This document shows, one piece after another, positions 290 to 48,654 of a stretch of 64,000 bases of DNA. Location: the NCBI GenBank assembly GCA_905178155.1, contig CAJINV010000003.1, positions 7,460,601 to 7,524,600 on the forward strand, read 5' to 3'. The position numbers were made by a program, and so were the translations under genes. The DNA comes from Amoebophrya sp. A120. Its lineage: Eukaryota; Protista; Dinoflagellata. The notes beneath the pieces are model-generated. The model was not told where the DNA came from. It was given only the letters and a program-made list of their open reading frames with translations, and did no database searches. Within the stretch, counting starts at the first letter, position 1. Each line of letters opens with the position of its first letter.

Positions 290-3200
290 TCAGATTTTAC
301 CCTTGGTCAAATAGTTGTCATTACAAGCCTCAAAAACGCTGGGTCGAGCGTCCTGGTCCCGCTGCAGCAATCGGCGGATGTAGTCTATCAAAAGGAAAGA
401 TCCCCCCTGCTCCCCACATCAAAACGAAAAGTCGCTGGTGAAGATGGCCCTCTCGCAACAAGACAGAGGCGATTAACTATTTTGCGGTTCCACATTATCA
501 GCATTGCAAATTTTCTGAGGCGTGCCAATTCGATATGGGGAGCGAGGGGGGATAATTTTCCTTTACGGTATAGTCCTGCGCTTCCTTGGACACTTTGGGC
601 TGGTCGGGAAACTCCACCTCGAGTTTGGTGTCGCCCCGGAGGGCAGAATGGTAGAACTTGTCCTGGGTCTGGTCGTGGCCGAAGGGTTTCCGTCCGTACA
701 GCATCTCGTAAAAGATCACTCCCACGGACCAAACATCCACCTTGTTGGAAACTTCCTGCGGCGCCTGTGGCTCCGATTTCTGGTGCTTGTTCTGAGGCCG
801 CGGAAAGCACTCGATGGGCAGGTACCAGTAGGTGCCCGAGCCGATGCTCGTCAACTCACAAGCCCGCTCGGCGAATTCGCTGTTGATCTGCTCCAACGCA
901 GGAACGTGGTTCTGTCCCTGTTGCTGCTGCTGCTTCTTGTGTTCCTTCTCGTCTCGCAGCTTTTTCAACCTGTAGATGAACCATGAACGCGGAGATTTTC
1001 TTCAAAGTAGTTTTAGAGCTCGGAACTACTTTACGCGACGGATTAGGTTCGCATTTCAAGGCCGATAAATGCTCACGGACAAGAAAAGACATGATGAGGT
1101 GGATCCTCAATTCTATGGGTTGTACCGATGTCGATGCTAGTGGTAGTACCTACTGCACCGGGGGGCCGTCATGACGAACACGAAGCCAATGTTGTATCAT
1201 TCCATTACCGCATTAATCATCCCAGCTATATAAAAATCAGACACCAGCTCACTTCCGTAGTTCCATCTCTCTTAGCATGCAAAGTGAAATAAATTGAGAC
1301 GACCGTACACGCCAAATAGCGCTTTCTCCTACGTCGTTTCCTGGTTAGCGTATTTACAACAACGACACCTATCAAAGCAAAAAAGTTCAGGCTCTGCTAC
1401 CGTTCCCCATCTGCGTCCTTGATCTCTCGAATTTTTGGGTTGATAGTCAGTTTCGTGTCGTCGATGAGGAGCGCCTGCTCCTTGTCTAATTTCTTATCCT
1501 GCTTCCGAACAGAGGCGGTGTTTGCGGACGACGACGAGGCCGCCGCAGCGTTCGCCCCGGTCGTTCCACTCCCGACCTGGTGGTTGTTGGCCTGAGCCGC
1601 GCCCGGCGTCACCGTTTTGTTATTGTTCCCCCCCTTGGTCGGCTGCCCCGCCGTCCCCGTCTGCTTTTGTTCTTTGACTCCAGCTGCTGCTCCGCCAGTG
1701 GTGGTTGATGGCGCAGCACCCGCTCCCGTCCCCGCCACGAGCTTCTGATTGTTCTGTTGTTCCACCTCCATGGATATCCCTCAGGAAAAATCTTAACCTG
1801 GCAGGTCATAAGATAATGGTGCATGTGCAAAAATAAAGTATACAAAATCTGTCCTCTTGCATGGCCCACGAAAGCATGTACGTACAGGCTCGCCCATGCC
1901 CGATTTTTGTTTTTCTGTGTTGTATTTGTCATACTAGTCATACACTATTTATTTGCATTGCAATCTGCCAGCTTCTCCCTCGTTCTGCGTGATATGGGAC
2001 TCCTCGTTGCCACTCGCGTTCGGACTGCTCGCTTTGGACGAGTCCGTGCCCTTGCGGACAATTTTCGACAGCCCGAAGTCGGTGATCTTGATGGCTCCCC
2101 GGTCGTACATCAAGTTGGACGGCTTCAGGTCGTAGTGAATGATGGGCTCCTCCCTCCGGTTCATGGCCTTCAGCCCCGTCATCAGCTGGATCAGCACGTG
2201 CCGGGCCTCCTTCTCGCTGAAGGTGCGCGAGGGGCGGGCCTTCAGGCAGTCGTCCAAGGTTTCGCCCGTCCCGCAGTACTCCATCACGGTGGCAAAGGCG
2301 TCCTTCGAAATCGAGATAACGTATGAGCGAGCAAAGAGCTCGATCGTCCCGTCTCTCCCCCTCATTTGATCAAGATGAACTAGGGCATCAATAGCAATAG
2401 TTAGAAATGCAATAAACGCCAGCAAATATTATTATCAATATTATGCAGCCTATGCATGACAAGTTTCTGTGCGGACTGTGGTGGTCGAAACAAGCACGAC
2501 CAGGAGCCGCCCTGCGAAATTTGTCAAAAAGCACGACCAGGAGCCGCAAGGCAGCACGACCAGGACCAACAAACTGGATTCGACGCTTCGCATGACAAAT
2601 GAGGGGGAGGGAGAGTTAGAGTTGTGCGCTCTCATATGACGTCGTACAGTTGTACAATACTGGTGGAGTTGTTCAGTGCTTTTTGGATGTCCGCCTCCCG
2701 CATCGCGTGCCGCACGTAAAACGCCGCCTCCTTATGGAAGCGTCAGGTTTGAAATCGTCAAAGTTGAAATAATTTGTCATGCATAAAATGGATGAAAGTT
2801 GTGACCCAGTTTGTAAGCGGCGCAAGACAAATTTCGGTGGTCGCTAAATCCACTTTGTCATGCTGTTTAGGCAAAGAAGAGCGATTTTCTTATGCTACTT
2901 TAGCAGCTTGAGCTGTAACCCCAAACAGGCTTACAATCGGCCTCACTTGCCTGCTCTGCAACACACGTGCCTCAGGTCATGCATTTTATGCATTGCAAAT
3001 TATTTCAACTTTGACGATTTCAAACCTGACGCTTCCATACTCCTCCTCCCGCATGTATCCCGAGTAATAAAAACGTGCCCACCCCAACTTTCTTTGTCAT
3101 GCAAACTCTTGGAGAGGAATCGCCCGATGGGTATTGCAGGCGACATTTCCGACATTTTTCGGATGCAAAATTTATTTTTGCCAAGTGGCGGCCAATCGTG

Positions 3201-6200
3201 AGTTGATATGGGGCCTCCTGCGCATGGCCTCTCCTTTATGGCTGTCAGCTGCACGGCACGGGGCACGACGCACACTCACCCCCATGAGGGCGGCAAGGAG
3301 ATGGCGCTGCGGGCTAATCGCCTGGATGATTTTCCCGAGCGACGCGCCACACCGCAAGGGACACCCTCCGGAACCCCTACGCTGTGTCATGCGCACAACA
3401 AGTCCCGATCTTAAGTAAAGACTATGGGGTCGTGCTGATGTTTTCACGCAGGATAGCATGTCACGGTTCACCTCGTGGATCTTAAACGCAACCTCCCGCA
3501 GGCGCTCTAAGTCGATTGCCTTGTAAACCTCGGAGAAACCTCCCTTCCCGATCAAATTCCCTAACTGGTACCGATTTCGGAAGCACGGGTAATTGTTGTA
3601 CTTCGAGTTTCGCTCGGCGTTCAAGATCTTCAATCGTTTCTCGTGCATCGTCCTGCAATTGCAATAAATTAAGCTGGCGAGTGATCTATACGTTTATAAT
3701 TAATCGCATCGCACAGAAACTGAAACACTTTGACGAGGTTGGTTAATTCACGTATTATATATACATTGACATGCAGTATCGCCGGTTGGTTATCGTAACG
3801 CTACCTATGTATCTATACCTCTCGGCCATGAATCGCTCCTCCCGTTGCACCAGTTCGGCCTCTTCGCGCCGTAGAAACTCCGCCCGGGAGTTGTACATTT
3901 CTCGCTGCTCAAAGATTCGCTCCTCCTCCAGAGCGTACTGAGACTGAGCCGAAACCATGACACCGCCAACGTTCATCTGGTCCTGCTTCACGGTTTCCGG
4001 CGGCAGTTCCTCCCTGGTCTTCTTCAGCTGGCGCTGGTCTGCGTTCAACCGTTTCCGCTGCTCTTCGATCGTGCGCTGGTGAGGTAGTCATGATTGAGTT
4101 GGTACCGCTATACATATCTTTGACTTTGTTTGAGTACGTTACGACAGGATCAACATCAATCAAGAAGACGCATTGTCCATGCGCTGTTCCATGAATGTTG
4201 AAAAGTGAATTTTTATACTCTTTCATTCTCGATTTCCGCTTTTTTCTCGTTGATTTCCTCGAATTCCTTTCCGTGCATCCATTCGCGGCGATTCTGCTGG
4301 AGAAAGGCGGAGTAGATGGGGCGTTCGCCGAGCCGCACAGTGTCGTCCAACACGCGGGCCTGGCGATCCGCACGTTCCCGCTTGTAGGTCTTGATGAATT
4401 GCTCCCGCAAACAGCCCCGCAGCTTGTCCAGGGCGTCTTGCTTCCAGGCGTCCCGTTCCCCGAGCTGCTCGGCGCGGACGGCCAGCGCGTTGTAAAAGTG
4501 CGACAGAACGGTCAGTTTTTCGTTTCCCTGCAGCTGCTGGATCAGGGTGTCCACCTGGCGCTGGTCCAAATTTTGGATGGCCTGCGCAGCCACGGACTCG
4601 GGGATCAAGTCCTGTAAGTCGAGGTTGATCTTGGTAGACGACCGCTTGTGCTGGTGGTCATTCGTGCCGCCCTGCTTTTCCTTGTCGGTCGCCAAGGCGA
4701 CAATTTGCGACAACAGGAAGGCCGGCTGCAGGGCTGTTGCCGCGCTTTCCGGCAGCCCCGCCAGATGCAACACCGCGGTCGTGCTGGAAGACGCCGCTGC
4801 AGCCTTGTTCGTCGCAGTGTTGTTGTTGTAGCTGTTGCCCGCTGTCAAAGTAGAGCTGCTGTTCGTCGCTCCGATCGGTGGCTGGTTCAGTGGCTGGTCC
4901 GCTTGTTGGGCCTCCAGACTGGTCTGGATCAACTGCGCAATCAGTCCCACCTCATGTTGGGTTATCGTACGAAAAAAGTGTTTCACTGTAAGGATTTTGC
5001 AAGTTTGGCATGACAAGTTCGTTACACATGACAAGGAAAACGCGCCATGCGAGGCTCCTAAGGGAAAACACAGCTAAAAATCGCCTGTCTTGCATGTGTA
5101 GCAAGACAAACACTTCTGAGATGCAGTCTCTGCATTACAAGTTTACAGTGAAACAGTTTTTTCTTGCGATATGGGTTTTACTCTGCTCGGGCGAACTGGA
5201 AGACACTTTTATCGGGTGGAAAAGCGTCACGCGCGTTCTAATCTAGCGATCTTTTTGACGCCTCACCTGCAAAACGACCGGCAGTTTCCAAGCGGCCGGA
5301 AGTGTTTTTGGACATAAAAGATTTCCACTTATCAAGCGGCCGGGGCCTTGCTGTCAAACAAGCGCGAGCGGATTCTATCGATTACCGCTTGATAAAACGA
5401 CGCAAGGGAGCCGCCAAAAGGGGCGCCCTTCTGAGGCGCCCACCGCCTTGGTTTCTGGCGATTTGGGGCGCCCAAAAGGGGGCGCCCAAAAAGCAGCATT
5501 CCGAAAAAAACAGGGAATCCGCATAGTATGGGCCTCATTTTGGCCCACATTCGGGCCTCGCAAAAGAGGCCACCAAAATCCGCCATTTCAGAGGCGGACT
5601 GAAGGCCAGTGTATGTGAGTACCCGAAAAAGGAAAGCCCTCTCACGGAAGGAAGCCACTCTATTAGCGCGCGTCCTCTGCCTGCGCACCCTCTGCCTGCG
5701 CCAGTCTGCGGAACGTAGATGGAAAAGCAAAGCGAATAGCCTCTCACCGCTCGTGAGCACGGTAAACTAAACTTGCAATGCGCCCCAACGAGCCAACCGT
5801 AGCTGTTAGAGTGCACACCCCGGGCCACCGACTCTACGGCCAAGACCCCGACCTGTCCGCCGACAGGGAGGAGATGAAATCCTGCAGGCCGCGGAGACGT
5901 GCGTCTCCTCCCATAGAAGTAGTGCCGTCTTCCGATATCAACCCAGGCGAGCCGAGCTGGCAAACCACCTCCCGCACGGGAAAATCCGCTACCGCTAGTA
6001 CCCAGACATGAGGCGCACCTGGCGCGGAACCTCCTCCGAAAGCTAGAAAGCGAGAAGCCTAACCCAGTCAGCGGATCTGTCAGCCACTAGACCTGAGGAA
6101 ACGAGCAACCGCCCCGCGCAACCACCTGCCGATGCGTTGGACTATCCTCCACCGGAAACCAACCCCGCAAGGGTCCCCTGAACAATAATACACGCGCTCT

Positions 6201-9200
6201 GCTGGCACAATGCGCAATCAGTCCCACCTCATGTTGGGTTTTATTCTGCTCGGGCGAACTGGAAGACACTTTTATCGGGTGGAAAAGCGTACCCTGCTCC
6301 CATTGCAGATACGCAGGAGCGAAGGTGGCATTGTCTTTCAAGAAAAAAAGCCGTCAAAAAAAATTTCGGATTTTCTCTTCCTCAGCTGTCGAGTCCGAGG
6401 TATGTAGTGACACATGAACATGACTGTGTCGCAAGTCCAAAGGAAGGGAATGAAAAGGAACGGTAATATTATACGCAGAAGATTCACTACTTTGCAATTG
6501 CAGACACGACCTCACACCATCATCAAAATAAACAAATTAATAGGATATGGTGGATTCGCCCGCACGGTGTAGTTTTGTCTTGTTTACGCAAAAAACAAAT
6601 GGGGACGCTTTCACACACAATAACGTTGTAGTTGTGCCCACTCTTGTCCATCAAAGACACAGCCCCGGCGCCGCCACCGGCCTGCGGCATGTCCTCGTCG
6701 TCCATATTCGCGGAAGAACTCCTTTCTTTGTGATCGTTCTTGGAGGTGACATTGCTCGACTCGGGACCACCGCCCTCCTTCTGGTTAGCACCTGTATGGA
6801 AACAAAATCAAAACTGATGATTGACTTTCGTCAGCAACATGTAACGTTGCAATTTCCTTCGCGGCGGCCCGCTTAGATTTTTTTGCGCTGCCATGAAGTT
6901 GGGAAACATTTTTGAAGCCGTTCTTGGAAGGAACCACCGGAAAGACGTCGCGCATCCATATCCTGTTGAGCGACTTGTTCTTAGCGTGATCCCAACCCAA
7001 ATCTGCAGGCCAGGACATAGGAGAGCCCCGGTGAGGCCCGACCATCTGCGTCCGCGGTGCTTTCTTTGCACGCCGGACGCGGACCCAACAAACAGGACAA
7101 AATAAAACCCGCCACCGTTTTTCGCAACTTAGGAAAACGACCGCTGGGCTGGTTTCAATTGCTGTGGCCTGTCTTAATAAGCGTACAGAATTTCCGCGCA
7201 GCTCTCGCAAGATGTGGCTGGCCGCTCTACCTGATTTCGTCGCTGCGCGCCGGCGTTTGCACATACGGGCGCCGGCGTCCGTACGAAATCAGAGCGAGCC
7301 AGATAAGCGGCGCAGGCCTTTTCTGCGTTCCTTCTTGGAAGGACTGCAGCGCGTTACGAGCATCAGCATGCCGCGCAAGCGAATACTATCCCAGTGCGCA
7401 GGCTCGCGCAACTGCCCCCACTTGTACCAAATTCGCGCCACTGACTAGGTGCCGGGAATGGGTTAGCATGCGGCGTAATGGCTTAGCATACGGCGCACAA
7501 CTTCTTCGCAAATGCAACGGGACCGAATAACGCATGAACAAGAAGTAGGCCCCGAGAGCATGCGCAGAGAAGGCCGCGGTGGCTCCGCGAATTCGGCACT
7601 CTTGTTGCTGTTGGTCACACACATTCCACAACTCTATTAACTCTGCCAAAAACAAAAATATTAGCCAACTCCGGACCAGCGTCTTTCTGGTTCGTACCTG
7701 GCACTCCGTCGAGGACGCCGCTGGTGTTCGCCGCCACTCCACCACCGTGCTGATGATGGTTGGAATTGGGGCTTGGCTTGTTGCTGGGGGGCTCCACTCT
7801 ACGTCGTTTGCGGTCGTCCTTGATGCTCTTCATGCACGTGGTCAGGTTGCTCGTTTTCTTTAGCGCCTCGTCCGAATCTCGGACGACCGGTTCTTTAGCT
7901 CCGCTGGGCCCGGCTTGCTGGGCCCCGGCACCGCCAGCAGCGGTCGCGGTTGTTCCCGCTTGATTTTGCACCGTGCCTCCACCGTTGTGCGTCCCAGCCC
8001 CGGATCCATTCACCGCCGCGCGCACCACACCCTGTTGGTCGTTGCTGTAACTGCTTTCCATCGCGTCCCCGACCCGCTCCGAACTCTCCTCCGTATCTGG
8101 TGGTGGAGTAGTAAAAGCGACAACTTTCTTGTTTGGAATCGTACTTTGAAATGGGACCACATCTTGATACTTGACATTCAACTCTCCATGACACAGTGGG
8201 AACTTTTCACTGGTCAGATTTTGGTTATTGGTTGCGGTAGCGGTAGCGGTAGCGGTCGTGTGGGATTTTCTGTGTTGCAGCACTGTTATCTCAACTACGC
8301 GTTGTGACCCACAAAAGCCGTTATAATCGAGCTCCAAATTTTGTACTTCTAGTTGCGCAGATGGAGGTGATACTAATGCGTGTCTATTTGGCAAGGCTGC
8401 ACTTGCTCCTTCTGGTACTTGCTTTTCTATTTCTTCCCCGCTAACACCTTTGACATTAGCGCTACAGTCACACAATTCAGTGGCCATAGCTGCCAGTAAC
8501 TAGTACTACGGTGATGCACAAGGTAAAAGCTGATCCTGTGCAAATAAGCACAGCTTCTTACTAGCAACTGCACTCTTGATGTTCGACTAGATCTTCACTA
8601 GCGTAGTTCAAAAGCCTGACGTAGTTCGCGCTGGTGCAAAGTTTATTTGGTCACTCGTACTCGAAGCTTTAGCGTAGTGTCAGCGTCGCGCCTGCTAGAG
8701 GTGACATTCAACCGTATCTATAAATATATCGCGTTTTTGTTTGTCACGAGTACCACTATTATCTTTCATTTCATCTTCAAGGAGAAGGGACCGCGACCGC
8801 GTTTTTGAAGAAGTCAGCAAATCTATTGATATGTGATCTGCGTTGTCCGTATCTCTTTGGTCTCTGACTGCGAATGCTTATGTGGCGGTGGGGGCGCTAT
8901 GCTGCAAGCAGCGTCAAGTACAACGACCTATCAGGAGTTTTAATCTCCTGGTCTATGAACAACATACAAGTTTACGTAAGTATATTTATCCACCGTCGTG
9001 TCCGCTGCGATTTGTTGCAATAGTCATCCTACTACAGCACACACTAAAATTCAAATTTCCAAATTAACAAAGAAGCACAAAAAAATACTTTGCTTCTGCT
9101 TGCTACCCTGGCCTCCGGCAGCTTGGGCCACCGCCAGCGCTCCGGCTGCAGCCGCGGATTCGATCACCCCACTCGAGCGGCGCTGGTCGGCAGCAGACAC

Positions 9201-9380
9201 GGCTGCACTTCGATTGGCTTTATCACCTCCTGTGTTGCCCACCGCCCCCGCCCCCGGTGGCACTTGCTTCTTTGCCATTTTGTGTCCACCGCCCTGAGCG
9301 GTAGTCTTGCCCACCTTCTTTCCGGCACTGCTGCCTTGGTGCGGTGGCTGTTTGTGGTCCCCTGGAGTCTGCTATGCAAG
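290..9380 (-). CDS. TLK: Tousled-like serine/threonine kinase (multi-exon; 5' exons above 6341 are tentative)
   Basis: Spliced by hand: [62 protein letters not shown]...[22 protein letters not shown]...[12 protein letters not shown]...KITDFGLSK...[18 protein letters not shown]...[30 protein letters not shown]...EAQDYIRRLL. These motifs are characteristic of TLK, with a coiled coil upstream (DTVRLG). Stop TGA at 290-292. Confidence 0.9.
386..570. mobile_element. Introner (TATCAAA(A/G)GG family) in TLK
   Basis: Imperfect TIRs; TSD tagtc at 381-385 and 571-575; removal restores AQDY|IRRLL. Confidence 0.85.
2322..2636. mobile_element. Introner (TATGAG family) in TLK
   Basis: TIR tatgag/ctcata plus inner ctcatttg/caaatgag; TSD taacg/tgacg; restores LYDV|ISISK. 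Contains three agcacgaccagga repeats. Confidence 0.8.
2733..3039. mobile_element. Introner with about 44-bp perfect TIR in TLK
   Basis: tatggaagcgtcaggtttgaaatcgtcaaagttgaaataatttg and its reverse complement; TSD ctcct at 2728-2732 and 3040-3044. Confidence 0.92.
3056..3455. mobile_element. Introner (TATCC family) in TLK
   Basis: tatcc...aaaaacgtgcccacccca / tgggg...gttttcacgcaggata; TSD gcatg at 3051-3055 and 3456-3460. Confidence 0.88.
4963..5171. mobile_element. Introner inside the left copy of an 80-bp duplication
   Basis: TIR tatcgtacgaaaaaagtgtttcactgtaa / ttacagtgaaacag...cttgcgata; TSD tgggt; the empty site is visible at 6211-6290. Confidence 0.92.
5228..6210. mobile_element. 983-bp insert flanked by an 80-bp direct repeat of TLK exon sequence
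   Basis: 4934-4962 plus 5177-5227 equals 6211-6290 with 1 mismatch; no TIR or recognisable ORF inside. Confidence 0.75.
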
Positions 9381-11822
9381 GAAAAAACTCTGGCTCTGCA
9401 GCGCGTTCACCCTGTTTCGAAGAAAAACATAGTAGCACTGCATACGATATTCAACTTTATTGTGAAGTGCTTTTTTCGCGTTCGCGTGACAGTTGCTCAG
9501 CTCTTTTGGGACAGGACAGCACAGCTGCAAACCACCAAAGTCGTAATCTACACACCAACTCTGTTGACGCTAGTGACGGTGACGATAGATTGCATAAATC
9601 ACCAGCACAAGTTAGTACACTTCATTTTGTTATTTCACTTTCGCATAGTTACAGTTTAGTCGTTTTTCTCCCTTTTGTTCGGAACCAAGAGTTCACATGG
9701 GCACATTTTTTCCTCGGGTATTTGCTCTTGGTCTGCCGCACTCGCCACGTCGTTGACACTAATCTATGGAGAGAGAGCAAGTGATCTCATAGACTGCTGT
9801 CCTAGCGCAAAGAACAAGAAATCAACTCCGTCGCGCGGGTTCGCGTAAGTGGATCGCATAAGTGCCGCTGCTAGATGGTTTCGGAATCGGATTCGGAAGA
9901 AAACGAAAAGATTCGGTTTGCTTTTTGCATGACAAAAAGGAGGAGTCAGAGACAGAGTCTAGCAAATCCGCATGACATGTTGGAATTTTCGTTGGGGCTG
10001 GCAGCAGGCACTGAAATCACTTACTTCCATATCATCCTCTTGTTCCCCGCCCCTTTTTGCTTGCTGTCCTCTACCATAAGTATGCATCGAAAATGTGTCT
10101 GGGCCAGGAACAGTGCAAATTGTCGCGCTACCTCTAGATTCTGAAAGACCCTGAATTGCAGGAGCAGCAAGAGGAGCCCAGCTGCATTTTTTACGCTCTA
10201 AGGTTATTTCTCATGCGGAAGAGGCATCAAGCATCCATCAAAAAAAATCTGTGATGCTAGGGCATACATCACAGACGTCATTCATGGGTTGTAATGCAAA
10301 ATGTGCGTGGCAACTGTTGCACATTTGCGGACACACCAGACATATTTGCAATCCATAATCAGGTGAAAGTCGTGCCAATTCTGTTTCAGTTGTTCTATCT
10401 AGGAACAACCTGAACAAGTACACTTTCGACTTCGAGCGAGGAGAAGTACAAAATGATTTATCTGACTTTCTCGGAGCGTCACGTAGCGAACAGCAAAATG
10501 CAGCCTCTCTACTATCAATTATATGCCACCGGGACCGAAGAAAAAATAATGTCTAGTTGGATTTTCTTTCGTAGGAGTGCTACCAGCTCTACATCTAAAC
10601 GTCGAAATGTCGGCATATATATAAATATAAACTAATATTGCTAAACGACCTGAAGCCACGATTAATCACGTTACCGCATAATTAGTGCAGTCATGATGTA
10701 GCAGGTAGAGGTACCTATCACATTCACAGCTTTGCCTTTGCTTTGTTTTCTCGCATTCATTTTGATTTTTCGTCACAAGCACAAGAAATAAGCAGAAGCA
10801 ACAGAAACAGCGTCGCTGCGCAGGGCGCTACCTCGCAGCCTCACGTTCACGACACAAAGCAACATTAACTCAACTTCAGCATATCAGCAGTTTAAGTTTT
10901 CTGACCCATCTGTCATAGCCACAGCACTTTTGCGCACTTTTGCGTCAAAATCCATTTGCATATCACCTCATGGAAGGCTTGGAAAATCATATTTTCTCAA
11001 TAGATCATACAGATACTCCGGCTTCGTAACTTTATTTTAAGGTTATCAATGAGGCTTCTTCAACTTCAACATCATTTTCTTGTCAGCGATTGCTCATCTC
11101 GTCTTCATCCACACAACAGTTTCGACCATCCACACAGTTGCTTCAACAAAACTGAACAGCCAAGTGATGAATGATTTGCGCAGAGGCCGTTGGAAATGTG
11201 TTGCAGTTTGGTGAAACACTTTCGCATTCTCGTGGAGGTACCGCCCCATTGCATGTTTGCAGTGCTCGTTCTTGTGCGCTCTTAGGCAGCAGCTCAGTAG
11301 ACCGCGACGACGAGCGCAACAGACGACCGTCGCCTACAATATCGAATCATATATCTGTAAAGTAAACTAGTTTTCGTAACGCAACATCAGCCCTTCACTG
11401 CAGCAACACTATCGATTGGATTCAGTATACCTCATGCATTTACATGCTTGCGAGTCTTCGCGGGCAGCAGCTGCAGCTCGCAAAAGTCAGCATCGCTATC
11501 AGCGCAAACGTTCATTCGCATTGTGACTGACTCGTATTTTTGTTTTTGGGGTCGTTCGCAGCAGCATTTCTTGGGGTCATGAGGAGATCAAACTAACTTC
11601 GAAGGTGCTCTTGTCCATATTTTTGCACGCCTCGAAACATGCCACTATATTGATGTTCTTGCTTACGTCTCTGCAGATCATTGACGTACTTAAACGAACC
11701 ATCTGGCTTTCAATGGGACGTTGCTTTCGTATGGAAAATGAAAAATGAAGTAGTTTCAAAGAGAAACTAGACTCCGCTTCCACCCTTATTTCGTCTCCGT
11801 TTTATATGCATATCAGCAGAGC

Positions 11823-13646
11823 TCAAATCAAAACTGGCGTAGGATTCTTGAGCCAGAACTCAAACTCTGCCGGCATGATTACATCGTCTGCGTGGAAGGA
11901 CTGCGACCTGTATAGAAAAATTCAATCCAGCTTTTCATTCCAACTACCAGTGGCCGCTTCAGTCAACAAGGAGAATTAACTGACATTGATTTTTGTTTTC
12001 ACGTTTTCGTTTCCGTCGAATATCATTTATTAGGGAGGATTAGGGCTGGGTTGATGCGAGTGGGGAAAATGTAAAAGAACAAGAAGACAAAGTACAGTGC
12101 ACTGCAAATGTAGCCCAGCTCCTCCTGCGAAAATTGAACTCCCTGGATACGCAAAGCGAGTTCTGCGAACTTATCCATTTTGAGCCCCTGTGGTGGGCAA
12201 ATGCTTGGGGTGGGTCCTCCTCGGTTCAGAAGCGCTTTTCTGACCTGGCGAAATAATTGATGTTAGTCAGTATCTTGTACTGAAACTGCTGCTGTACCAA
12301 ATTTATTATCAAGGATCTCGACTTGCGGCACGATCTCCCTGGCAGCAATCGAAAAACGGCTAATCGGATTTTTAGCAACCTCCACAAGTATTTCAATTCT
12401 CTGATATACTTTACTTACTTCTCCAGGAATTTTTCACCAAAAACAAGCAACAAGCGATCTCTTTTTTTGCTTACTGAATCGAGCTTCTTTGCGGTTCGAA
12501 ATCCGTAGAAAATCGCCAGGCAACCCAATCCCAATAGATATCCGAAAATAATGAAACCTGCATAGAAGCCAACATGAAAGCCGATTTATTTTCATTTCAG
12601 GCAACAAAAAGAGCGTGTCCATGTGTCGTATATGCTCAGCATCATATTCACAAAACCAGACGTAAGGAATCCCAAGGCGTGCAGCTCTTCGCCTTTGAAA
12701 TTATCAGCATCATTTTTCGTCGTAGTAGAACATAGCTCGTTATTCTCTTTTGTACCAAAGAGAGGCAGCGTGTCGTTGTCCCAGAGGTTTCCGCATACCA
12801 TGCACCCGAGAAAAATGTACATCACTCCCCTCCCGATGAAGCGAGTAAGAAAAAGGCACGCCTTAAATATGACCAGACGGAACTCCATCAGTCGTGGATG
12901 CTGATACTGTAATATTCAATTGGTTTTTATTTGTACTGTCGTCTTTCTTGAGTATACGTTCCGTTTCAAGAACCCCAGCACTGAAGCGACGACCACATCA
13001 GCGACGATGAACTACAGCTGAGTAGTACTTTTTTACGACTATGTCGAAAATCAATGTACCGGCACGTCCAGGGCTGTCATGATCAGCCCGAAGAGCATGA
13101 GGTAGGAGAAAATGATGATGTCGAACGGACTTGCTATTGTCCCGATCATGCTCCACAAACCCAGAAACGCACCGGATCATGTGGAAAAGTGTAGCACCCT
13201 TAATACGACACAAATCATGACCAGCACGACGTCCAGCTCCAGATCGATACAAATATACAGTAGCCGTGCGCACACAAGCATCAGCTGGACTCTTGTTGAA
13301 CGACCCTATGATCATGCTGGGTGGTACAACACTTTGAGTACAACACTTTTCATCTTGATATGCCAAAAACCGTGCTCAAACCGGCGGCAAAAAACAAAAC
13401 CTTCCATGACGCTTTTATCTTCGCTCCGCCCGGGCCTGCAAATAGTTTTTGTTTGTAGCTGAAGCTCCTGCACAAGAACGAAACCATCATAAGTAATTTA
13501 ATGAAAGAAAGCGTGCCTGAAAATCAGTGGAAGGGATGCACTGAAGCCTTCCGAACGGTTCTTGAAGCAAAAACGAATTGAGCAAAGATCATCGAAGATC
13601 AAGTACCGACGGGCATTGCCCCGCCCAGCATCGGCTGCCCCTCCAT
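11823..13646 (-). CDS. COPI-associated / TVP15-like Golgi membrane protein with a C-terminal EF-hand-like tail
   Basis: Exons read MEGQPMLGGAMPV...WKVLFFAAGLSTVFGAFLGLWSMIG...SYLMLFGLIMTALDVP...FLTRFIGRGVMYIFLGCM...GFIIFGYLLGLGCLAIFYG...SQEELGYICSAL...DDVIMPAEFEFWLKNPTPVLI*. FLxxFxGRGxxYIFLG is typical of this family. Confidence 0.7.
13175..13360. mobile_element. Degenerate introner in the COPI-associated gene
   Basis: gatcatgtggaaaagtgt / acacttttcatcttgata; removing the element plus 5 nt restores TVFG|AFLG. Confidence 0.65.
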
Positions 13647-14138
13647 CTTGTTCTCTTCTACGCTACCGGACGCAGTCGACTATGAAAACATTATTAATTC
13701 CAAATTGTATGTATGAGTCGTGCAGTTTTTGTCAGGAAGACAGAAAGCACCTCGCAGTTATCTCGGACGCATAGGCATACTGCTCCATGTATTTACAACA
13801 TAGGGGTAAAAATTATAAAGCCGGAAAACGTACAAATATAAAGTTTCTATGGTGCTGTGTGGCGTATAATATGGCGCAGCACCAGACCTATTTCGAAGAG
13901 GCAGCCTCACAACAAAAGCTACTTAGTTCGTCCCAGAAAGAAAAATTAAAGCCATGCTAACAAGGTGCTAACACAAAGTTGATGCTGATGATGATGATGA
14001 TGGTCTGTGGGAAAAGACCACTCTCCTTCACAAGGATGAAAAGAGAACTCTCATCGTGAAGATGGTGACATGATAAAGGCAGCAAACGTCACAACCAGCT
14101 TACCTAGACCACGCATGCTACAGCAAGTGCAAGACCAT

Positions 14139-15625: not shown

Positions 15626-15764
15626 CTACTTCAAGAATAAGTCACTCTCACTCATCTATCTATCGAGCGCATGCGCAGTTCGCACTTCTGATAGTGAGAC
15701 ACCGCAGAAAACGGTAACTGCTGGACGCGTCAGTGGCAATTGAACGTGCGAATCTCATGGTGTA

Positions 15765-29188: not shown

Positions 29189-32098
29189 CTAGCTGTCTGT
29201 GAAAAACGGGTGACAGAGAGCCCGTTTTGCCGTTAGACGCCTCGCCTATCCCGAGTAAAACCGTCCGCACCCCAAACGTGTCATACAAATCTGCAAGCCT
29301 CAAATGTTTCTCATGCACAGGGTAAAATAAATGAGTAGCATTTTCTAACGCCGTCAGGCAGTTTCTTCTTGGCGCGCGAGAATAAGTATATCGGTCTGCG
29401 CTGCAGCTGCACTAGTTCCACATGATTACACTGCGAGCCCAAACCTGACTTCATGCGCGACAGCCGAAACTCGTTGGCTTGTGAGGAAGCGTTCGCATCT
29501 GGACTCTGGGGCGGGGACGTTTTTACAGAGGATATCGCTGGATCGTATTTCATCAGGTGCTCGAGGAGGTCACAGCAGGATAGCCCGACCTGGGGAAAAT
29601 CAAGTTGTCCTATGCTTCTTGGCATGCACCAGTGTATCGGTTAGGCAATGACCGACTGCCGACAAAAATTTTTAACAAGTACGTATACATCTTCGTAGGC
29701 AGCAAAGCCACAGCGGTCTTTTTACCTTTCCTGCGAACGAACGAGCAGGAGAAGCTGAATCTGAAACAATCATTAAAACGCACCCATCGAGTGAAACCGG
29801 TGAGCCGGCGAAGTAAAAAAATGTATCGATGCTCAGCAGAACAAAAATACGCAAAACTCTGATGTTGAAGTACCTTCGACCCAAGCTCCCGAATATCAGG
29901 CCAGAGCTTTTTTCGCCACCTCGGGAACGTGTCTTGCTTGAAATCCTTCAGGTGCTCGAGTCCCGGCCATTCTTGAAAACTTGGCGTGCCCAGCTTCTGA
30001 AAAATCTTGAATATCGTATCGATCTCGCAATCCCCTGTAAAGTAGAGTGTGTGATGTGCCGTCAAGTGCGTACAAGAGATCGATACTCTTTTTGCAGGCT
30101 ATAAATTTGCACAGCTGATTACTTTAAACATAATGAGACGTCCAGGAGGGCAATTCGAATCTGTTCGATCGAATGTGTAGAGTGCCTATAAAAATATCCC
30201 TCCGCGAGTATTCGACCCAAGCGTAAGCTCAAGCTGCCAATGCTGCCACATCATTAGGTACATCAAAATCAGAACAGTACAGAAATACAAAATCAAAAAG
30301 ACACTTATAAAAGTCAATACCCATAAATAGAGCGGCACCGCAGCCCATTTCGCCAAGACGCTTATGCAACGGCAAAAACGCAACATCTCAGTTTCAATGC
30401 AGTTTATTTCTGAACGTACTTTGTTCTTTTTACAACTACTTTCATTGCATTTATTTCGGAGAAGAGAGCGGAATCCGGATCGTGTAATTGAGGCATGCTG
30501 TTCAAAAATCGATGGTTGGTGTGCAGCCACTTCATCTTCGACACAAATGCACGCGTTGCGAGACAACCCAGTGACTACGTCGTGATTGCGCTGTTGTTCG
30601 TTCCTCGGCGTAAATGCATCCAGTACTCCAAATATCGACTGGGAGCGCATACTCTTGCTGTCCAAGCAAGATCTCTGGCGCTCGATACCTGGATATGCAG
30701 CGAAAAAGCAGTGCAAATGCAGGCGACGACGCCACAGAGCATGACTACGTGGCACGCGTTTTTCTGTGTTTTGCCGCTTGCATTTCAAAGTAAGCTTCGA
30801 GACCAAGAAAAAAAGAACAAGCGATCGAATCAGAGCCAAACGAAACTTGATATTGTTTGTATGTAGCTGCGAACATAATAAAAATCTTCTCTACCAGACG
30901 GTGACCACCTCGTGGGTGTATTTCGGTATTGGCAGCGTGAAAGCCCGCGCGAGACCGAAATCAGCGATTTTGAGTATTGGTGGGTTATCCACTGTGACGA
31001 GCAGATTCTGTGGCTTCAAATCACGATGGAGGATCCGATGGTTGTGGCAAAAGTCCAGGCCCGACAGGAGCTGGTATCCAAAATCCCGTACCTGACGCGA
31101 ACTCAACGCTCCCCCGTTTTTCTTCATGAACTTCTTCAGGTCGGACTCCACAAACTCAAATACCAGCATCACCTGCAAGGTCGTGTGTGTCGCGTGATTT
31201 AGAAGGTTTTTTTAGCTTTAGCGTTATCTGCTTTCATGACCTACTTCAGCAGTGTACAAACAGATGTTCTAGGTGACTCTACCACTGGCTAGTATACCTA
31301 GCCTGACAGATTTCGTGGGACGGAAGATCGCTTTTGCGCGCGCCTTGATCATTCTGGAGCGTCAAGTCCCTAAGTAGTAGAGCGGCCATGAAAAAGAAGG
31401 GTTGTATCTTTTAAATAAATACTCTTTTTACCTTCTTTTGCGTGCAGAAAACGTCGCGGAGGTGCACAACATTTTTGTGCGGAAGCTCCTTTAGTATACT
31501 GATCTCACGGATGGCTGTCGACGGTATGCCTTCCTCTTCGTCGTGGAGCTTCATCTTTTTCATCGCGAGGATTTCGTTCGTGACATTGTCTTTGACTTTG
31601 TACACCTCGCCATAGGTTCCTTCTCCCAGCAGCTTGACTTCCACTTTCTCGTACCTCGCACTCAGCATCCTGAGAAAAAACGTCCTCGTCCCACAGTTGT
31701 ACTATACCTACCTAGAAGCGCTACACAAGAAACCCGCAAGCTCCAGGAGACAAATTTGAGCCCGCAGCTTTGCTATCGCGGTCGGCGAAGGCTACCAAGG
31801 CACATAGATTGGAGCATGAAAACTTCTGAAACACAAGTAGGAACTGCCTCCCCCTTTCATGGAGTTGGAGAAGGAGATTGATCAGCCGCATGAGAAAGAT
31901 TCCGCGTGAAATGATTAGGATTAGCATGCAAATTTGCGTGACAAATCTGGGGTGTAGCTTTTGCTATTCATTGAAGATGTAGAACAACAAATCATAGCAC
32001 AGACAAAAGGATGTAAGGACGGGGACGTTTTTACCCAGGATACTGGGGCTTGCATCCCCACCAGCTCCCGCGCCGCTGCTGGCGCTGCTCGTCTCCAT
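29189..32098 (-). CDS. CDK1: Cyclin-dependent kinase, cdc2/CDK1-2 type (PSTAIRE)
   Basis: METSS...SPS|[97 protein letters not shown]|[14 protein letters not shown]. Confidence 0.93.
29247..29534. mobile_element. Introner (TATCC family) in CDK
   Basis: TSD tcgcc/tcgct; restores YDPA|RRLTAK. Confidence 0.88.
31666..32042. mobile_element. Introner (TATCC family) in the first exon of CDK
   Basis: catcctgagaaaaaacgtcctcgtcc / ggacggggacgtttttacccaggata; TSD ctcag/ctggg; joins the ATG at 32098 to the kinase frame. Confidence 0.82.
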
Positions 32099-35270: not shown

Positions 35271-36600
35271 GCTTCTGACGTTACAATAAATTTCTGTGTC
35301 AGTGGTTGTTGGCTGTTGCATGTCGCATTATTTTCTACAAGTCGCAAACACTTACGAAAATACAAAAACCGTCCTAATAAAAAATCGTGCTTTTTGTGGT
35401 GAGTTTTCGCTGTCGATTAATGCTGTACTGTTCGCAAGATGTTGAAACAAGATCAAGAACCAGAGCACGATTTACCTCTTTAAAATTACTTGTTTCGCGG
35501 ACTTCGATGAAACGTGGTGGTTGCTGTTTATTCTCCAACTTAATTTCCAGCCCAAGAAACTAGTTGTGAAAACGTCTGGCTCATTTATATGTATTCTTGC
35601 AAACCACTGCTAGGTACTACCAGGCTCTATTCTCCGGCCAAAACGAAAAGCTACAAGCTCTTAACTTACAGCAGAAAAAGAACTGGTACAAAACTTCTTC
35701 AGGGTCAAAATCTGTGTGCTTTACGAAGCGCTACGTTCTACGACGCGATTTCGAAATCGGACGCATGTTGCAGAGCAGAGATCTAGTATTTGGAAGCAGA
35801 GGCAAAAAAAATTTGGGAAAGTGCAACACCGACAGCTGCAGAGATGAGACGCACCTACGCTAGTACAACAGCAAAAGGCATCTACATCTAAATCGCAACA
35901 AAAATATCATCGAATCTATCGGCTTTATTACTTTTCTCATTGGATTTATGGTGTTCTTTAGATGTATTCCTGCGGCCCGACTTTGCACCACACGCACGCA
36001 GTCTTGGTATAGTAGATAGGTCTAGAACTCGGAGATGATGGGAATTACTATAAATAGGTGTTTTTGGCGTACCCAGGTACGCTGTAGGCTTCGTTAGATC
36101 TTACACGCTCATCTTCTGATATTGATGATTATAATCTGTTCGACTCTAAGTCTTAGATTGTCCCGCGATCTTCTGATATTAATGTGGAGGAAAGCCGAGA
36201 CGTCAGGTGGTTCTCCTCGTCTCTATGTATTTGCTAGTGTTTTTAACGTATCCAACGTGGAGGCACCATAGGGATGACCACAGCAACATGAAGTGCGTCT
36301 TGTGTGTGTCTCTGTGTGTGAAGAATGCCGCTCCAATCGAGTGCTCAGTGGTAGCAAGGGGATACTGGCGACGTCTTGTGGTTCAGCGATTCCATCAAAA
36401 ATGACGTCGATGCAGCTGGGGGTGCGCTGAAGGAAGACAGATTATCCCAGCAAAGCTCTCAGACCCAGTCAAAAGTTTAGATAAAGATACAGGACGCAGA
36501 AGATGAAGACATATACTACATGTGCGTAGTCTTTTTGTTTTTTCACGTGTTCTTGCGCCGCGGCGTCCTTCGTCGGCTTTACTCGCTTTTAATAAAATAC

Positions 36601-39600
36601 TTATTGTGGTCTGACGTCACAAAAAACAGCTTTGACTGGACTGAAAGCTTTGCAGAGAGCATACAGTTGCGATGTGTTGGTGTGATCGTACGCATGATGC
36701 TGTGGCTGTTGAACAAGATGATGGCTCTGCTGCTGATGATGCGCCTGCAGTGTGGACGACGGCATCTGATCCACGGCCACGAAAGCCGGTGGAGCACCAG
36801 CGCCAGGCATCAACGTGTTCCCTGTACCAGTAGTGTTACCGGCCGAAGATGTGATAGCCCGTGCCGCGGTCGCACCAGTATACTGGTGGTATGCGTGCTC
36901 CGCTTGAGATCCGAGTACCGCGGATGTGCCGGTGGTACCACAATTACCGTGCATATCCGCGGGGGCGTAAGCCGCGGACGTTGATGTATTTGCGTAAGAA
37001 CCGCCTCCAGCGCTCATCGTGCCTGCGTGAGGACCACAAACACCTGCTCCCGTCGCTCCGTTTAGAGCACATAGACCTGCACCCGTTACTCCGCTGTTCT
37101 GGAGGTAGTTCACTTGCTGATGTTGATTCTGCTGCGCCACCGAAGATTTGCTCCTTATGGTGCAACAAACAGAAGTCTTGCTGTGTTGCGAGCAATTCTT
37201 GTTCTATCAATACCTCATATAAATCGCGCAACTGCACTGCACCACGAGAGCCGGACGTCTGTTTTACTATTACTTTTCCGACCGCGTAAGTTGATTAAAG
37301 TGCAGCGCAGAAACACAGTCCCAATGTTCATACAGAAGCACCAGCACAGGAGCTTGGGAACTAAATACTTAAAATCAGAAAATGCAGTGGTGAGGCAGAA
37401 ATGTTGCGAGCCGTCATCTTTACAATATGTAGATACACTACGTCGGTGCAAATTTCGCTTCGACTTGCAGGTAAAAGGATTTTGATAGGATAGTGGGAGC
37501 GGTGCAGCTACTGCCCAGGTGGTGCTGTCCTGCCTGCTGGGCTGTGGCGTGATGTTGCGGGCCGGCGGTTGCCTGCGTGGACCCGCCCATCCCCTGGAAT
37601 ACCCCCTCCGCGGAAAAATGCTGGAGCCGCTCTCGCGCCCGGCTGTCACGCTTGCGATCGATGGCCTTTAGTAGTGTCTGGTAAGTTTTTGCGCTCAACA
37701 AACACGCCCGAAAGTGCTTCTTGGCTGCTGCCAGCTCCACGAATTCCAGCGCCATAGTCAACTTATTTTGATGCGCGGCCGCCACCGCGAGCGCGGAGTA
37801 ATGGTAACCCTCAGGACGAAACCCCTCCTGGTCCATCTGCTGCAAAACACTCTTTCCGCGAACCAAGTCCCCATGGTTGGCAAGCGCATGCACAAAGGCA
37901 GAGTACACCACACGCAACAAGTATACCCGAGAAATTATATGCCCCTGCCACAGTCGCGCGCTGCATCCCCGCAGGTAAAGAATCCATTAAAACTCGTACG
38001 ACCAAAATGTATCTGCAAAAGCAGCTGCGTCGCTATATTTTATTCTTGATAAGATTCAAATATTGAATTGCTTCCATCGAACTCCTGCGAACGGAGTTTT
38101 TCAACCTGCTTGTTCCCTCCACATTTCACGACTTATTTCACCCTTTCTAATAAATATCCCTGGGAAAAACGACGTGAGGAGTCCTTTATGCAAGTGCGAA
38201 ATACGACCTAGGCAGAGAACAACAATAACTTCATGTACGCTGCATGTTTGCCTCAACCGGCAGCAAAAAACAGTCTCCGCGGGCGGAACTCTTGTTGTAC
38301 GCAGCGGCTCATTCCGGGGCGCGAACGATTCGTGCCGCGTTCTACAAAGCAGGGGCATTTTAACTTGTGGGTGATAGCGGGTCCTTATCGTTCTGGCTGC
38401 TGGTTTTGGCGCAGTTCTTCGTGTAATAGTCCCCGTACTCGTCGTATGTGCTGTGCTGGTGGTGGTACTTGCCATGGTACCCGTGCCGGCCGCCTTTGCC
38501 CTGATTCTGCTTCAGCTGCTCGAGCACGCCGTAGGCCTTATGGATGTCGATGGGGACGTAGAGCTTTACCAGGATGCTCCACGTTATCGCATTCGGGTAC
38601 ACTCGCTTCTCCGTCATCTCCGCCAGGAGACGCTCCGCAATCTCCACCTTGCCCTCCTTCGCACATCCATCGCTATGAGAGCGCACAGCTCCGCCTCCCC
38701 CTTACTTCAACTACTGGGAGATGAAGGGGGGCATCATGATATTTATTAGAGGAGCAGCAGCGAGAAAAAGAATTGGCGCTATCAACAAAAAATTCGAACG
38801 GTGCTGACAGACAAAGACTCCTGACAGTGACAGTACAGTTGGTATAAAATTATAGGATGCATCACGGAAGGGAAGCAGGTGCACTTGTGCGCTCTACACT
38901 TTCATAGTCCAGCAGGGAGTTGTAAGTGACCGGGTCTATGCATTGCAAATATATCTGGGTCTGGAAGGTTGCGCGCGTTCTTGGTCATGCAGCGTTTGGA
39001 TGGCGCGGAAGCGGATAGCCTGGAATGCACGAAAGACCATTCGAACTTGTGCTCGTCAGCGTCAGGCCCCTTGATCCCTGTCCCGTGTGAGAAATTGAAA
39101 TTCGCTATGTATGATTTGCGTAGGAATGGACAACTTTTGCCACTCATGCGTCGTGCCGAGCGAGTTTCTACTATTTGGAAAAGTAGTTGCATGTCCTGTC
39201 TCTGTGATTCAGAGTTTGCATGAACAAATACAACAAGTTCGCACCCTTCCAAACCTGGACACATTTATTGCAGTGAGTAGGGTCCGCGGCAAAGCCATTC
39301 TGTTCCATCATCTGGAACGTTTCAAGGGCCTTGTCCAGCGCGCCCCCCTGGGCGTACCCCTTGGCAATAATGGAGTAAGTGCAGCCATTGGGACTCAGCT
39401 CGTAGGCCTTGATCATCTGCAGGATCTCCTGGAAGTGGTGGTGGCCACCGGTCCGCGCCACCGAGTCGATCACGGAGTTGAAGGTGAGAATCCCCGGGGG
39501 TAGGTTGAGCTCCTGGATCTGGTACAGGGCCTGCATGGCCTTCTCCGGCTTGTTCAAGCGCCCGTACATCTTGATCTTCAGGCTCATGCTGATGATCGAG

Positions 39601-42600
39601 TGCGGAATGTTCATGGCCTCCATCTCCTCGAAAAGTTCCTCTGCTTTGCGGTCTTCCGACATCTTCAAACACAGGTCAATCAGAGCGCCGAAAAGCACCG
39701 CGTTCAGTGGCAAATTGTCCAGCTCGATTCGCTGCTTCACCTGGAGAGTCAAAATAAGCAAAGCCTTGTTTATTAGCAGCCTTCTTCGTTACGATTACGG
39801 TTTATTACATACGATAGTACACTACGTATTTTGATTCTCGACGCTCGAAATCATGATGATGATCATCATATCGGAGAATAAACACGTGCCGGATGGAATA
39901 TCAAAATTTCGTCACATCACCTCTAGCACCGTTAGGCTCTTTCCGTTCACGTTGACGTTGTGAAGAGCTCTTATATTTTCTCCCTCTACATAATCCGAAT
40001 TTCCGTATGCCGTGGCCGAGCGTGAGCGAATGATCACAGTATCTATTAATAAAGACAATTTATTTGAAGAAGAGCTCTACCCGGAAAGCAGACTCAAGAT
40101 CGCGCTGCTGGGAATAGCATTTGATGAGGAGGCCATATTCGAACTGCGAGAACTTCAGCAGGTCTCGGCTAAGCTCGAAAATTTGTTCCGCCAGGTCAGG
40201 GCGTATCCCAGAGACAAAAGCTGAACCTAGTACATCATCTCAATTCTTCCGTGCATCAAGATGAGTCTGTCATTGGCTGACAACATCACATCGTGTAAAA
40301 GAAGTTTTCTGGTGCGTATACATGAATATTCATTTTCGCATATAGTTACGCTAGCTTTTTTCCCTGGGATAGGGCGCCCGCAATGCGCACAAGCGTCGAG
40401 CAAAGCGCGGACGAGTACTCCGTCGATGCGGCTCCCATTCTGCTATCCTGTGTAAAAACGTCCCCACCCCAGAGTTGTTATGCTAAAGGAATTGCAGCAC
40501 ACTTTGCCCCCCCCTCTGCCCCAGGCCGCAGATGGCTTGACACGCAGGGGGGGTAGGTCAGGCGGACACCAAAGTGCCATCGCCATCATCTCCCGGCCGC
40601 TAACCCCAGAGTTGTTATGCAAATTTGCAATGACAGGAGCGCTTGTAATGCGCTTCCCCATGACAGGCATTTCTAATCGAGTTTTGGCATTTGTAATGCT
40701 GCAAACAGGATAAGCAGATGGATTTCAGATGCGGATGTCCTTGCTAACATGCACTACACTGCGGACTGCAACTTGTCACGCGTGGCTCCCAAAACTTCTG
40801 GATTTGTGTTGCTAAGTTCCCAACTTGACTATGGGGTGGGGACGTTTTTACATATGATATCTGCTGTAGCTTCCACACGTCGTTGAACGCCCGCTCCAGT
40901 ACCTCTTGCTTGACGCTTATCAAATGTAAAAATGTCTGGGTCTGGAAACTTGTGATGCTGGGTGGCGTCTCATGATGAGGCTACAAATGCTGGCTCAGCA
41001 TGACAAGTTTCTGAGCTCCTAGGTGTTGCCTATTCTGCATGACAAACTGCGCTTCTGCATCACAGAAAAACGGAGCTCTTGGGTAACGTGCATGACAGAT
41101 TTAAGAGTCATGCCAGACAAGCATGACAGACATGAATTCTTCCAGACCCAGACATTTTTGCATTTGATAACGCTGAAGTGTCCGCCATTGTTATAGCTGC
41201 GGTTGTGCTGCCCGTATCCGCCGCCTGCCCCCGCGTACGAATTGTGATTGTTCCATTTATTGTTGTGCTGGCCCTTCCCCCCTCCACCTCCATTATTTGC
41301 GTACCAGCCGCTCGCTCCCGCGGAAGAGGAAGATTGCCATTGCGAGGACTGTCCCCAGTTTGAAGAAGCCCCTCCGGAAGATGATGAGGCTGGAGTGTTG
41401 TATTGCTCCCACTGGTTCGTGTTGGCGTTCCAGACCTGCTGATTCTGGTGTTGAACAACACTGGAAGCATTGTTCGTCCCGGCAGTGCCGGGGTTGGTGC
41501 CGAACACCGAGGGTCCATAGTCTTTCATCTGCTTGATGGCCGAGATCAGGCTCGTGTAGGTCGCACAGTCGGGGTGTACGTTGAGAGACTGCATCTCGGA
41601 GACCAGCTGCCACGCTCGAGCGAACTGGTTCAGCTGCACGCAGGTGTGCACCAGCGTGTTGTAGGTGACCACGTTGGGCTGCACTGCGTTGCGTCGCATT
41701 TCGTCCAGAATGTTGAAGGCGCTGTCCGAGTCCCGCTCCATCGCGTATCAAACAAAAAAGTGCCTTAACGTTTTGAACAGTTTTCAAAGATTGCAGTCAT
41801 CGAGGAGATCATGGTGTCAAATTTTGCCTAAACATGATGCAAGATGTTGCTATGCAATACAAATTTTCTTTTTCGCGCTCTGTTTTCTAGTCGTGCATCA
41901 CTACATGCCAACTCCCGTTAAAACGCTTTTTTGGTTGATATCGCGTAGGCACGAATCACCGTGTTGTAGGTCACGCAGTCGGGCTCCAAACCGTCGTCCC
42001 GCATTTGGGTGTACAGGGAAATCGCCTTCCGCGGACGGAAATTCACGATGCAGGCATCTTATCCTGTGCGAAAACGTGGTGCCCACCCCGTAGCCAGCCT
42101 GGCATTGCTGGTAACTTTGATTTATACAACTTAAGGAGTAGTTATGGGTATGGCTGTAGAAGTTGCGCATGACAAGCCTAGATACGGAGCATTGCGGTTG
42201 CAGTGAAGTTTAATTATTGCAGCTGCGTCAATACTCGCCTTTCTGATATTGCTTCGTAAAATCCCAATATACTGGGCATTTGAATTTACACGTTTTTACA
42301 CAGGGTACGTCGATCAGAGAATTCATCATGAAGCTGTCACAGCTTTTCGCCTCCCGGTAGAGGAAAAAAACGCCAAAGGCAAAGTGGAGACACTGCAAGT
42401 GCCCCGCACTGCGGATCAGGATTGTGGACGACGCGGCAAGTGGAAGCTTCTCTTTGGTGTGTTTTGACTCCAACGGCCGCTTATGCATTGCAAAATCTTC
42501 ATCGGATCTTTAGTATTAGGTTGCATTTTTACGATGACGAAAGTTCTCAGGAAAAAGCAACTGCAACTTGGAACCGCTCTTGAAAGTAGATGATGAGGTT

Positions 42601-48507: not shown

Positions 48508-48654
48508 CCCTTGGTCGCCTCTTGTTGTTCAAACACTATATCGCAAACTGTGCAGTAAAAACTTCACTTCCTTGCCTAACAACATGAAAAAAATCACTCA
48601 TGATGAAAACGGTGGTACCTACTTAATTCTAAAAACAACTAAAACTTTACATTC

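Follow-up and report, generated by a model that had tools for sequence, protein, structure and literature searches.

Why should introns that have little other sequence in common carry the same short DNA motif? The question is raised by a 64,000-nt stretch of the genome of Amoebophrya sp. A120 (contig CAJINV010000003.1, 7,460,601–7,524,600), hereafter called the window, whose genes are interrupted by introners bounded by terminal inverted repeats (TIRs). For this organism, about 1,950 introner families that make up tens of thousands of non-canonical introns have been described, with no transposase found, in the parts covered of the published report (PMC7789003); all papers are cited here for the parts covered. 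Most families were classed as 'TIR DNA, Unknown' (PMC7789003, PMC12130899), and Farhat et al. 2021 argued against general mobilisation by a transposase (PMC7789003). An earlier note on the window had listed twelve copies of the 9-mer TTGTCATGC and proposed a common binding site, either subterminal for the transposase or for a factor that marks the introns for removal. Our analysis favoured the first branch: the motif is likely a duplex-DNA binding site of the mobilising protein, that is, of a shared transposase's DNA-binding domain or of its obligate partner.

A motif common to introner families

The examined genes were all on the minus strand and were interrupted by TAY…RTA elements with inverted ends and a 5-bp flanking duplication. 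The ends are inverted repeats beginning with TAT, followed by seven loose bases and an A-run; in some families the TAT stands without the A-run. The same non-GT-AG introns, TAT-N7-A-run inverted ends, short direct repeats and co-oriented genes have been described for A120 introners (PMC7789003, PMC12130899), and published family lengths near 107, 148, 208, 256, 278, 305 and 320 bp (56 of 58 A120 rows) match the present families (PMC12130899). All four traits tested (ends, direct repeat, non-GT-AG removal and repeated families) were found, and the elements match the published Amoebophrya A120 introners. In the window, 29 non-canonical elements (9,947 bp) were curated, 17 with contig joints and 12 inferred from ends and reading frames, together with 21 canonical introns (5,254 bp), 9 with joints and 12 inferred. 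The coordinates of the MORN-gene introns and of some canonical introns are approximate by 1–2 bases, with the counts unaffected. Splice evidence came from transcript-like contigs of one sample, presumed to be RNA; for positions 1–20000, 15 of 28 joints were listed, including those of 6 non-canonical introns, and 36300–42950 was represented by one long contig per run.

The 9-mer TTGTCATGC occurred 13 times in the window, against 0.89 expected (standard deviation 0.98) from dinucleotide shuffles (n = 100), none of which reached 13; the earlier figure of about 0.5 chance matches was too low. The twelve positions listed before were all exact, and a thirteenth copy, at 9927, had been overlooked. 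All 13 were inside TAT…ATA inverted-repeat elements. The statement that the copies lie inside introners of different TIR families held for the introners but was overstated for the families, as the twelve matches represent eight elements of about five families; the element holding the 9927 copy adds one further family. The elements at 16245–17115 and 40918–41169 are one family (91% over 172 nt), those at 2322–2636 and 25304–25706 both map best to one family, and the 3056 and 42060 elements have similar ends. The 8-mer variants noted at 3385, 16350, 16370 and in both arms of the 23033 hairpin were recovered, but the one given at 5027 is a one-mismatch variant.

Outside the 45.7–48.5 kb repeat, TTGTCATGC was the highest-ranking 9-mer of the window and its core the highest-ranking 8-mer. 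Single-base scans led to the core TGTVATGC (the strict motif), with 40 matches in the window (C 22, A 9, G 9 at the variable base); the T variant occurred only twice. The motif is broader than the 9-mer, YTGT(C/G/A)ATGC, with the matrix consensus A-Y-Y-T-G-T-V-A/T-T-G-C-W. The most variable position is the C of CATG, so the CATG palindrome, previously noted within the core, is not the functional core. Among the 40 strict matches, 39 were in the 29 TAT…ATA elements with 5-bp duplications and one was in the 21 canonical introns. The remaining 48,799 bp of the window contained none, with about 5 predicted from the window-wide density of 0.106/kb.

The pattern was the same in related loci. At least 151 of these (486 kb after merging overlaps) were fetched with the TIR pattern of one family, which contains no motif; their elements reached up to 98% identity to window copies. 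The same pattern gave no matches in viral contigs. Motif-blind calling identified 315 elements, compared with 3 and 3 in two shuffles, and these were sorted into 13 families and 12 singletons. Since one family made up 159 of the 315 copies, cross-family statistics were weighted or computed per family. The strict motif was present in 307 of 315 elements and in 13 of 13 families, with 989 matches versus about 23 in shuffles and on average about 1–4 copies per element, in both orientations. Its density was 12.45/kb in elements, 10.87/kb in partial copies and 0.24/kb in the remainder. That remainder contained 90 strict matches against 30.6 expected, clustered in few loci and without TAT at in-phase offsets; decayed elements perhaps account for this excess. 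Motif clusters outside called elements were seen in loci L025 and L028, which perhaps represent genes with many decayed introners.

When 8-letter words with one free position were compared, only variants of the TGTVATGC motif reached 13 families, and the 30 words of greatest family breadth were all such variants. With TIRs removed and motifs masked, common sequence between the interiors of different families was limited to patches of 16–40 nt. In the window, 11 of the 15 strict-motif carriers matched the 13 locus families. Equal frequency across sequence classes, or descent of all carriers from one recent element, had been named as what would speak against a common binding site. The frequency was not equal in canonical introns or other DNA, the carriers are not all derived from a single recent element, and the putative site is thereby supported.

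Spacing and conservation of the copies

The copies were positioned relative to the element ends and to each other. In the related loci, inward copies began 33–35, 41–46, 53–56, 61–66 and 73–77 bp from the element end, the nearest motif edge peaked at 33–35 and 41–46 bp and was closer than 33 bp at only two element ends, and window elements showed the same distances as their families. A 9.8–11-bp phasing of family-end modal sites was exceeded by 21–25 of 5000 permutations with the strict motif (25 sites) and by 1–2 of 5000 with the matrix (39 sites), most of the signal coming from the first two positions. In 9 of 13 families, the richest copy contained direct pairs 30–34 bp apart, versus a null mean of 2.2 (0 of 20000; look-elsewhere p = 0.003); with the matrix, this held for 10 of 13 families (look-elsewhere p = 0.017). 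The main distance was 31–33 bp. These pairs are not recent tandem duplications, because the flanks of their members were only 22–53% identical. In helical terms, the first inward copies are about three or four turns from the end and direct pairs are three turns apart.

The spacing claim is limited to the 31–33-bp peak and the distances from the ends. No strict 33/43 rule pairing one end with the other was seen. A regular 10.5-bp lattice covering every pair orientation was also rejected, as direct-pair periods of 9–12 were not separated and a period of 15.75 fitted equally. The terminal TAT-N7-AAAA was considered as an outward motif copy; position 4 was best on average, with a real match in families 1 and 11 only, and the resemblance is not general.

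Substitutions were compared in nine subfamilies (64 copies), with motif sites defined from the consensus, which biases the comparison toward conservation. Variants found in more than one copy affected 2 of 259 motif sites versus 91 of 1325 interior sites. Private changes per cell were 0.018 in the motif and 0.034 in the interior (p = 0.011 for the private:shared contrast, which was stronger at looser clustering and not significant at the tightest cuts). This pattern fits selection mainly on copies that transpose again; the lower private rate in the motif may be due to founders missing from the sample or to some constraint later on. Copies of family 0 had a median identity of only 61%, and their motif positions were still fixed. 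As to persistence in decayed copies, raised in the earlier note, retention was partial: in the window, the strict motif was kept in 9 of 11 intact-ended versus 6 of 18 decayed elements (p = 0.021).

A probable transposition binding array and its rivals

A short motif repeated inside both ends, in fixed position to the terminus and to its other copies, has the traits of subterminal repeats. The motif array is a set of subterminal repeats, unusual in being common to and phased across unrelated families. Judged from sequence, the transposase branch of the earlier proposal is backed by the fixed end spacing, the strand neutrality and the conservation in transposing lineages, which suggest a protein binding boxes on duplex DNA in a fixed geometry to the tip. 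In an oligomeric transposase, several subunits would bind boxes along the same face of the helix and place their catalytic domains on the TAT tips, comparable to the use of subterminal repeats by the BED domains of Hermes. A single enzyme could still move families that had drifted in TIR body and spacer sequence, which would account for hundreds of families without a family-specific transposase. After insertion, the motif is dispensable for RNA removal and would decay, with the TAT…ATA ends persisting.

The TA…TA ends and the 5-bp duplication point to an integrase-like DDE protein (Ginger/IS3EU/GingerRoot type), with hAT5 as the alternative. An integrase-like enzyme is the lead because A120 family 38 is classed as Ginger, with a 5-bp target-site duplication (TSD), TA/TA termini and integrase-like homology (PMC12130899). 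IS3EU and GingerRoot have the same TA…TA (TAY…RTA) termini and TIRs longer than 30 bp, but usually 6-bp duplications (PMC10045372, PMC6839031, PMC12730594), whereas in TIR-only pairs of the present elements the duplication was 5 bp in 51 of 54 and 6 bp in 0 of 54; the elements were therefore not assigned to these groups. The TSD of GingerRoot leans GC-rich in the parts covered, as does, slightly, that of the present elements; the word 'subterminal' is absent from the GingerRoot paper. The hAT5 group has the same 5-bp duplication and belongs to a superfamily known for subterminal repeats, but was described within an animal lineage (PMC12730594). In hAT/Hermes, the subterminal repeats resemble the motif array in being short sites in both orientations, asymmetric between ends and rigidly positioned relative to the TIR (PMC10368747). 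In contrast to the family-specific 4-bp site of the Hermes BED domain and the usually 8-bp duplications of hAT elements (PMC10368747), the present array has a 9–10-bp site and 31–33-bp pairing, goes with a 5-bp duplication and is common to at least 13 families whose TIR bodies differ.

The covered parts of the A120 introner papers report neither a motif inside the elements nor a rule for its spacing (PMC7789003, PMC12130899). Further literature on Amoebophrya introners (PMC11282704, 10.1101/2020.10.14.339549) likewise contained no report of the motif in the parts covered, with Roy et al. 2023, supplementary figures and GitHub alignments outside that coverage, and a literature search with the motif string gave nothing related among the matches listed.

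A motif with a spacing rule was common to all families tested, which suggests one mobilising system. As a more specific proposal, which we put forward tentatively and hold to be somewhat doubtful, one transposase reads only the TAT tip and helically phased YTGTVATGC boxes, like a tip–spacer–nonamer signal with free spacers. If this is true, the TIR and interior could diversify without limit, the A120 introner families, which number hundreds to thousands, would together form a single transposon system, and the transposition code (boxes) would be separate from the splicing code (hairpin ends). The motif can be used as a DNA bait, as a signature in looking for the autonomous element and as a means of recognising old introners; separating mobilisation from splicing narrows the search for the splicing signal to the element ends.

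Several observations weigh against a transposase-bound array. Phasing beyond 50 bp was weak (p about 0.05) and outward-pointing copies showed none; 3 of 13 families (1, 11 and 12) had no inward 33/43 site, and two intact-ended window elements (40204 and 41746) had no strict motif. Transposase or integrase domains were found in 0 of 79 related-locus open reading frames (Pfam; mainly from 151 long frames), no transposase was found in related-locus elements longer than 400 bp, and no autonomous copy was found in the window or the loci. The TIR bodies differ between families, and more than one transposase may be involved. Private substitutions were about two-fold lower in the motif, allowing some constraint after insertion, and motif density in the related loci was flat across TIR mismatch classes (1.36, 1.28 and 1.38 per 100 bp). 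Locus retrieval was by the TIR of one family, and the element calls were biased to young copies. At 505–1608, the related locus L020 contained a TAT…ATA element of 1,104 bp. Four motifs were close to one of its ends, the interior was repeat-rich GC sequence, and the frame of 238 codons had no Pfam match.

The main rival, which we regard as unlikely, is a host-encoded DNA-binding protein occupying the array, either as an architectural co-factor of transposition or as a silencing or chromatin-targeting factor, with different transposases for the TIR bodies. A single motif across very different TIR bodies, the depletion of private substitutions in the motif and the absence of an A120 transposase according to Farhat et al. 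(PMC7789003, parts covered) would all suit such a protein. The 48.8 kb of exons, promoters and intergenic DNA without a match argue that the motif is not a general promoter element, however, and for the distance to the tip to be fixed, the enzyme that processes the ends has to be contacted. Transposing lineages, moreover, would lose rather than keep a silencing mark. We consider it improbable that the motif is instead a relic, inherited from an ancient common ancestor made up of tandem units of about 31 bp and kept without present binding function. The recurrent 31–33-bp direct spacing, the common TAT ends and 5-bp duplication and the short patches between some families are consistent with common descent, but the flanks within pairs were near random, the motif places are fixed in family 0 despite its divergence, and shared variants avoid the motif, a selective conservation that largely refutes a relic.

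The other branch of the earlier proposal, an RNA-level signal for a factor marking non-canonical introns for removal, fared poorly. Near-confinement of the motif to non-canonical introns speaks for it, as do the reported absence of U1 in the genus (PMC7789003, parts covered) and the depletion of private substitutions; the motif may have a weak effect on efficiency. In transcript-like contigs, 17 non-canonical introns without GT-AG were skipped, 6 in 1–20000 and 11 in 36300–42950, where all 12 introns were skipped. Ten of the 17 had no strict motif, however, and six had no matrix site at all. The strict matches were not strand-specific (22 on the plus and 18 on the minus strand, that is, 22 antisense and 18 sense), nor was the motif present in all introns of the class, as a splicing signal would be. 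Skipped introns included carriers of sense copies only (2322, 4963, 42060) and of antisense copies only (2733, 3056, 40444), and spacing in helical turns suits duplex DNA. The motif is not required for intron removal; given its occurrence in both orientations and the absence of its strict form from 10 of these 17 introns, a splicing mark is unlikely, and we give the RNA-level signal as little credence as the relic. Least probable of all is a by-product of CpG decay, of a CATG-type methylation target or of hairpin pairing between inverted copies. The motif is rich in TG/CA steps, the 23033 hairpin has inverted copies on either side, and such copies lengthen some TIRs; against this, the C of CATG is a free position, other TG/CA sites varied like the rest of the interior, and direct pairs and one-orientation elements are unable to pair.

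Elements and other features of the window

In the kinase gene, whose frame of 1163 aa is restored by intron removal, the TIR intron 2322–2636 (contig joint 2315>2636) carried 9-mers at 2454 and 2590, both on the minus strand, the second beginning 40 bp from the right end. The TIR intron 2733–3039 had a 63-bp TIR and the duplication CTCCT. Its 9-mers were at 2774 and 2855; with the matrix, there was a site 43 bp from each end and a 32-bp pair. The TIR intron 3056–3455 had the duplication GCATG, a 9-mer at 3094 and an 8-mer at 3385. The contig joint 2732>3456 spans both of these introns and the micro-exon between them. This micro-exon, of about 11 nt in the kinase domain (3040–3055), is flanked by back-to-back introners, and the contig shows six letters between the joints. 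The TIR intron 4963–5171 (duplication TGGGT; joint 4957>5172) carried a 9-mer at 5008, TGTAATGC at 5132 (33 bp from the right end) and a matrix site at 64. The exon piece 4933–5227 is duplicated at 6208–6295 inside the 5205–6622 intron, and the inner copy does not contain the 4963 element. The inner copy is the natural empty site of this element, with one copy of the five duplicated bases.

The TIR intron 9765–10031, overlooked in the earlier note, contained a 9-mer at 9927 and an 8-mer at 9970, and its removal with two neighbours is predicted to open a 146-aa frame. An older relative of the 16245/40918 family was located at 10081–10357, with motifs at 10250 and 10290. The TIR intron 15858–16184 had TGTAATGC at 15996 and matrix pairs 32 and 33 bp apart, and its removal in silico restored the frame. 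In the TIR intron 16245–17115, whose removal restored a 579-aa frame, motifs were at 16285, 16350, 16370, 16408, 17028 (plus) and 17075 (minus). This element is oriented opposite to its family member 40918–41169 and, compared with that 252-bp relative, contains about 600 bp extra (16420–17027). In runs X9 and X10, raw RNA reads matched only 16245–16276 and 16389–16412 (91 and 108 reads), with foreign flanks; abundant transcripts from elsewhere contain copies of this family. The X9 read sequence extends into the motif just inside the TIR.

Further along the window, the TIR intron 22328–22606 carried TGTGATGC at 22439, 22472 and 22521, with pairs 33 and 31 bp apart, and the decayed TIR intron 22999–23269 contained the 23033–23083 hairpin with TGTCATGC in both arms. 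The decayed TIR intron 25304–25706 of the MORN gene, an intron judging by the frame, had motifs at 25341 and 25405 (plus) and a 9-mer at 25527 (minus). In the PPR gene, the TIR intron 40444–40859 contained TGTAATGC at 40644 and 40692 and two 31-bp matrix pairs. The TIR intron 40918–41169 had a motif at 40951 (plus; 34 bp from the left end) and motifs at 40998, 41037, 41057, 41090 and 41121 (minus), the latter 42, 73, 106, 126 and 165 bp from the right end, which includes one of the 42/73/106 series. A 9-mer at 42167 was found in the decayed TIR intron 42060–42307, and the short TIR intron 49875–50019 carried TGTAATGC at 49913 and 49944 (minus; 31 bp apart) and at 49979 (plus).

Neither a strict nor a matrix site was present in the control introns: the decayed non-canonical intron 13175–13360, still skipped in contigs, four non-canonical introns (36437–36662, 37152–37493, 37918–38377 and 38670–38907), all skipped in one contig, and the intact-ended TIR intron 40204–40371, also skipped. 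At decayed duplications, the joints 13170/13362, 37151/37494, 37917/38378 and 42054/42308 were compatible with a single cut, located on the sense strand one base ahead of the element and four bases past it; the joint 13170>13362 was unambiguous.

Lone TAT-N7-AAAA ends were present in CDK-gene introns at 30694–30720 and 30363–30380, one of them in an intron with canonical ends; these are possibly old introners becoming canonical. The 2.8-kb inverted-repeat element at 45730–48515 had different ends, contained its own internal word TTGTCGAA 39 times and lacked TGTVATGC; it seems to be a transposon of a separate type, with a repeat array of its own. A GC-rich 1.1-kb insert (53585–54720) between direct repeats of about 45 bp (53585, 54680) is possibly a small long-terminal-repeat-type or recombined element. 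Upstream of the last long gene, a tandem array of about 120-bp units was found at 60040–60460, with a relative in the related locus L024.

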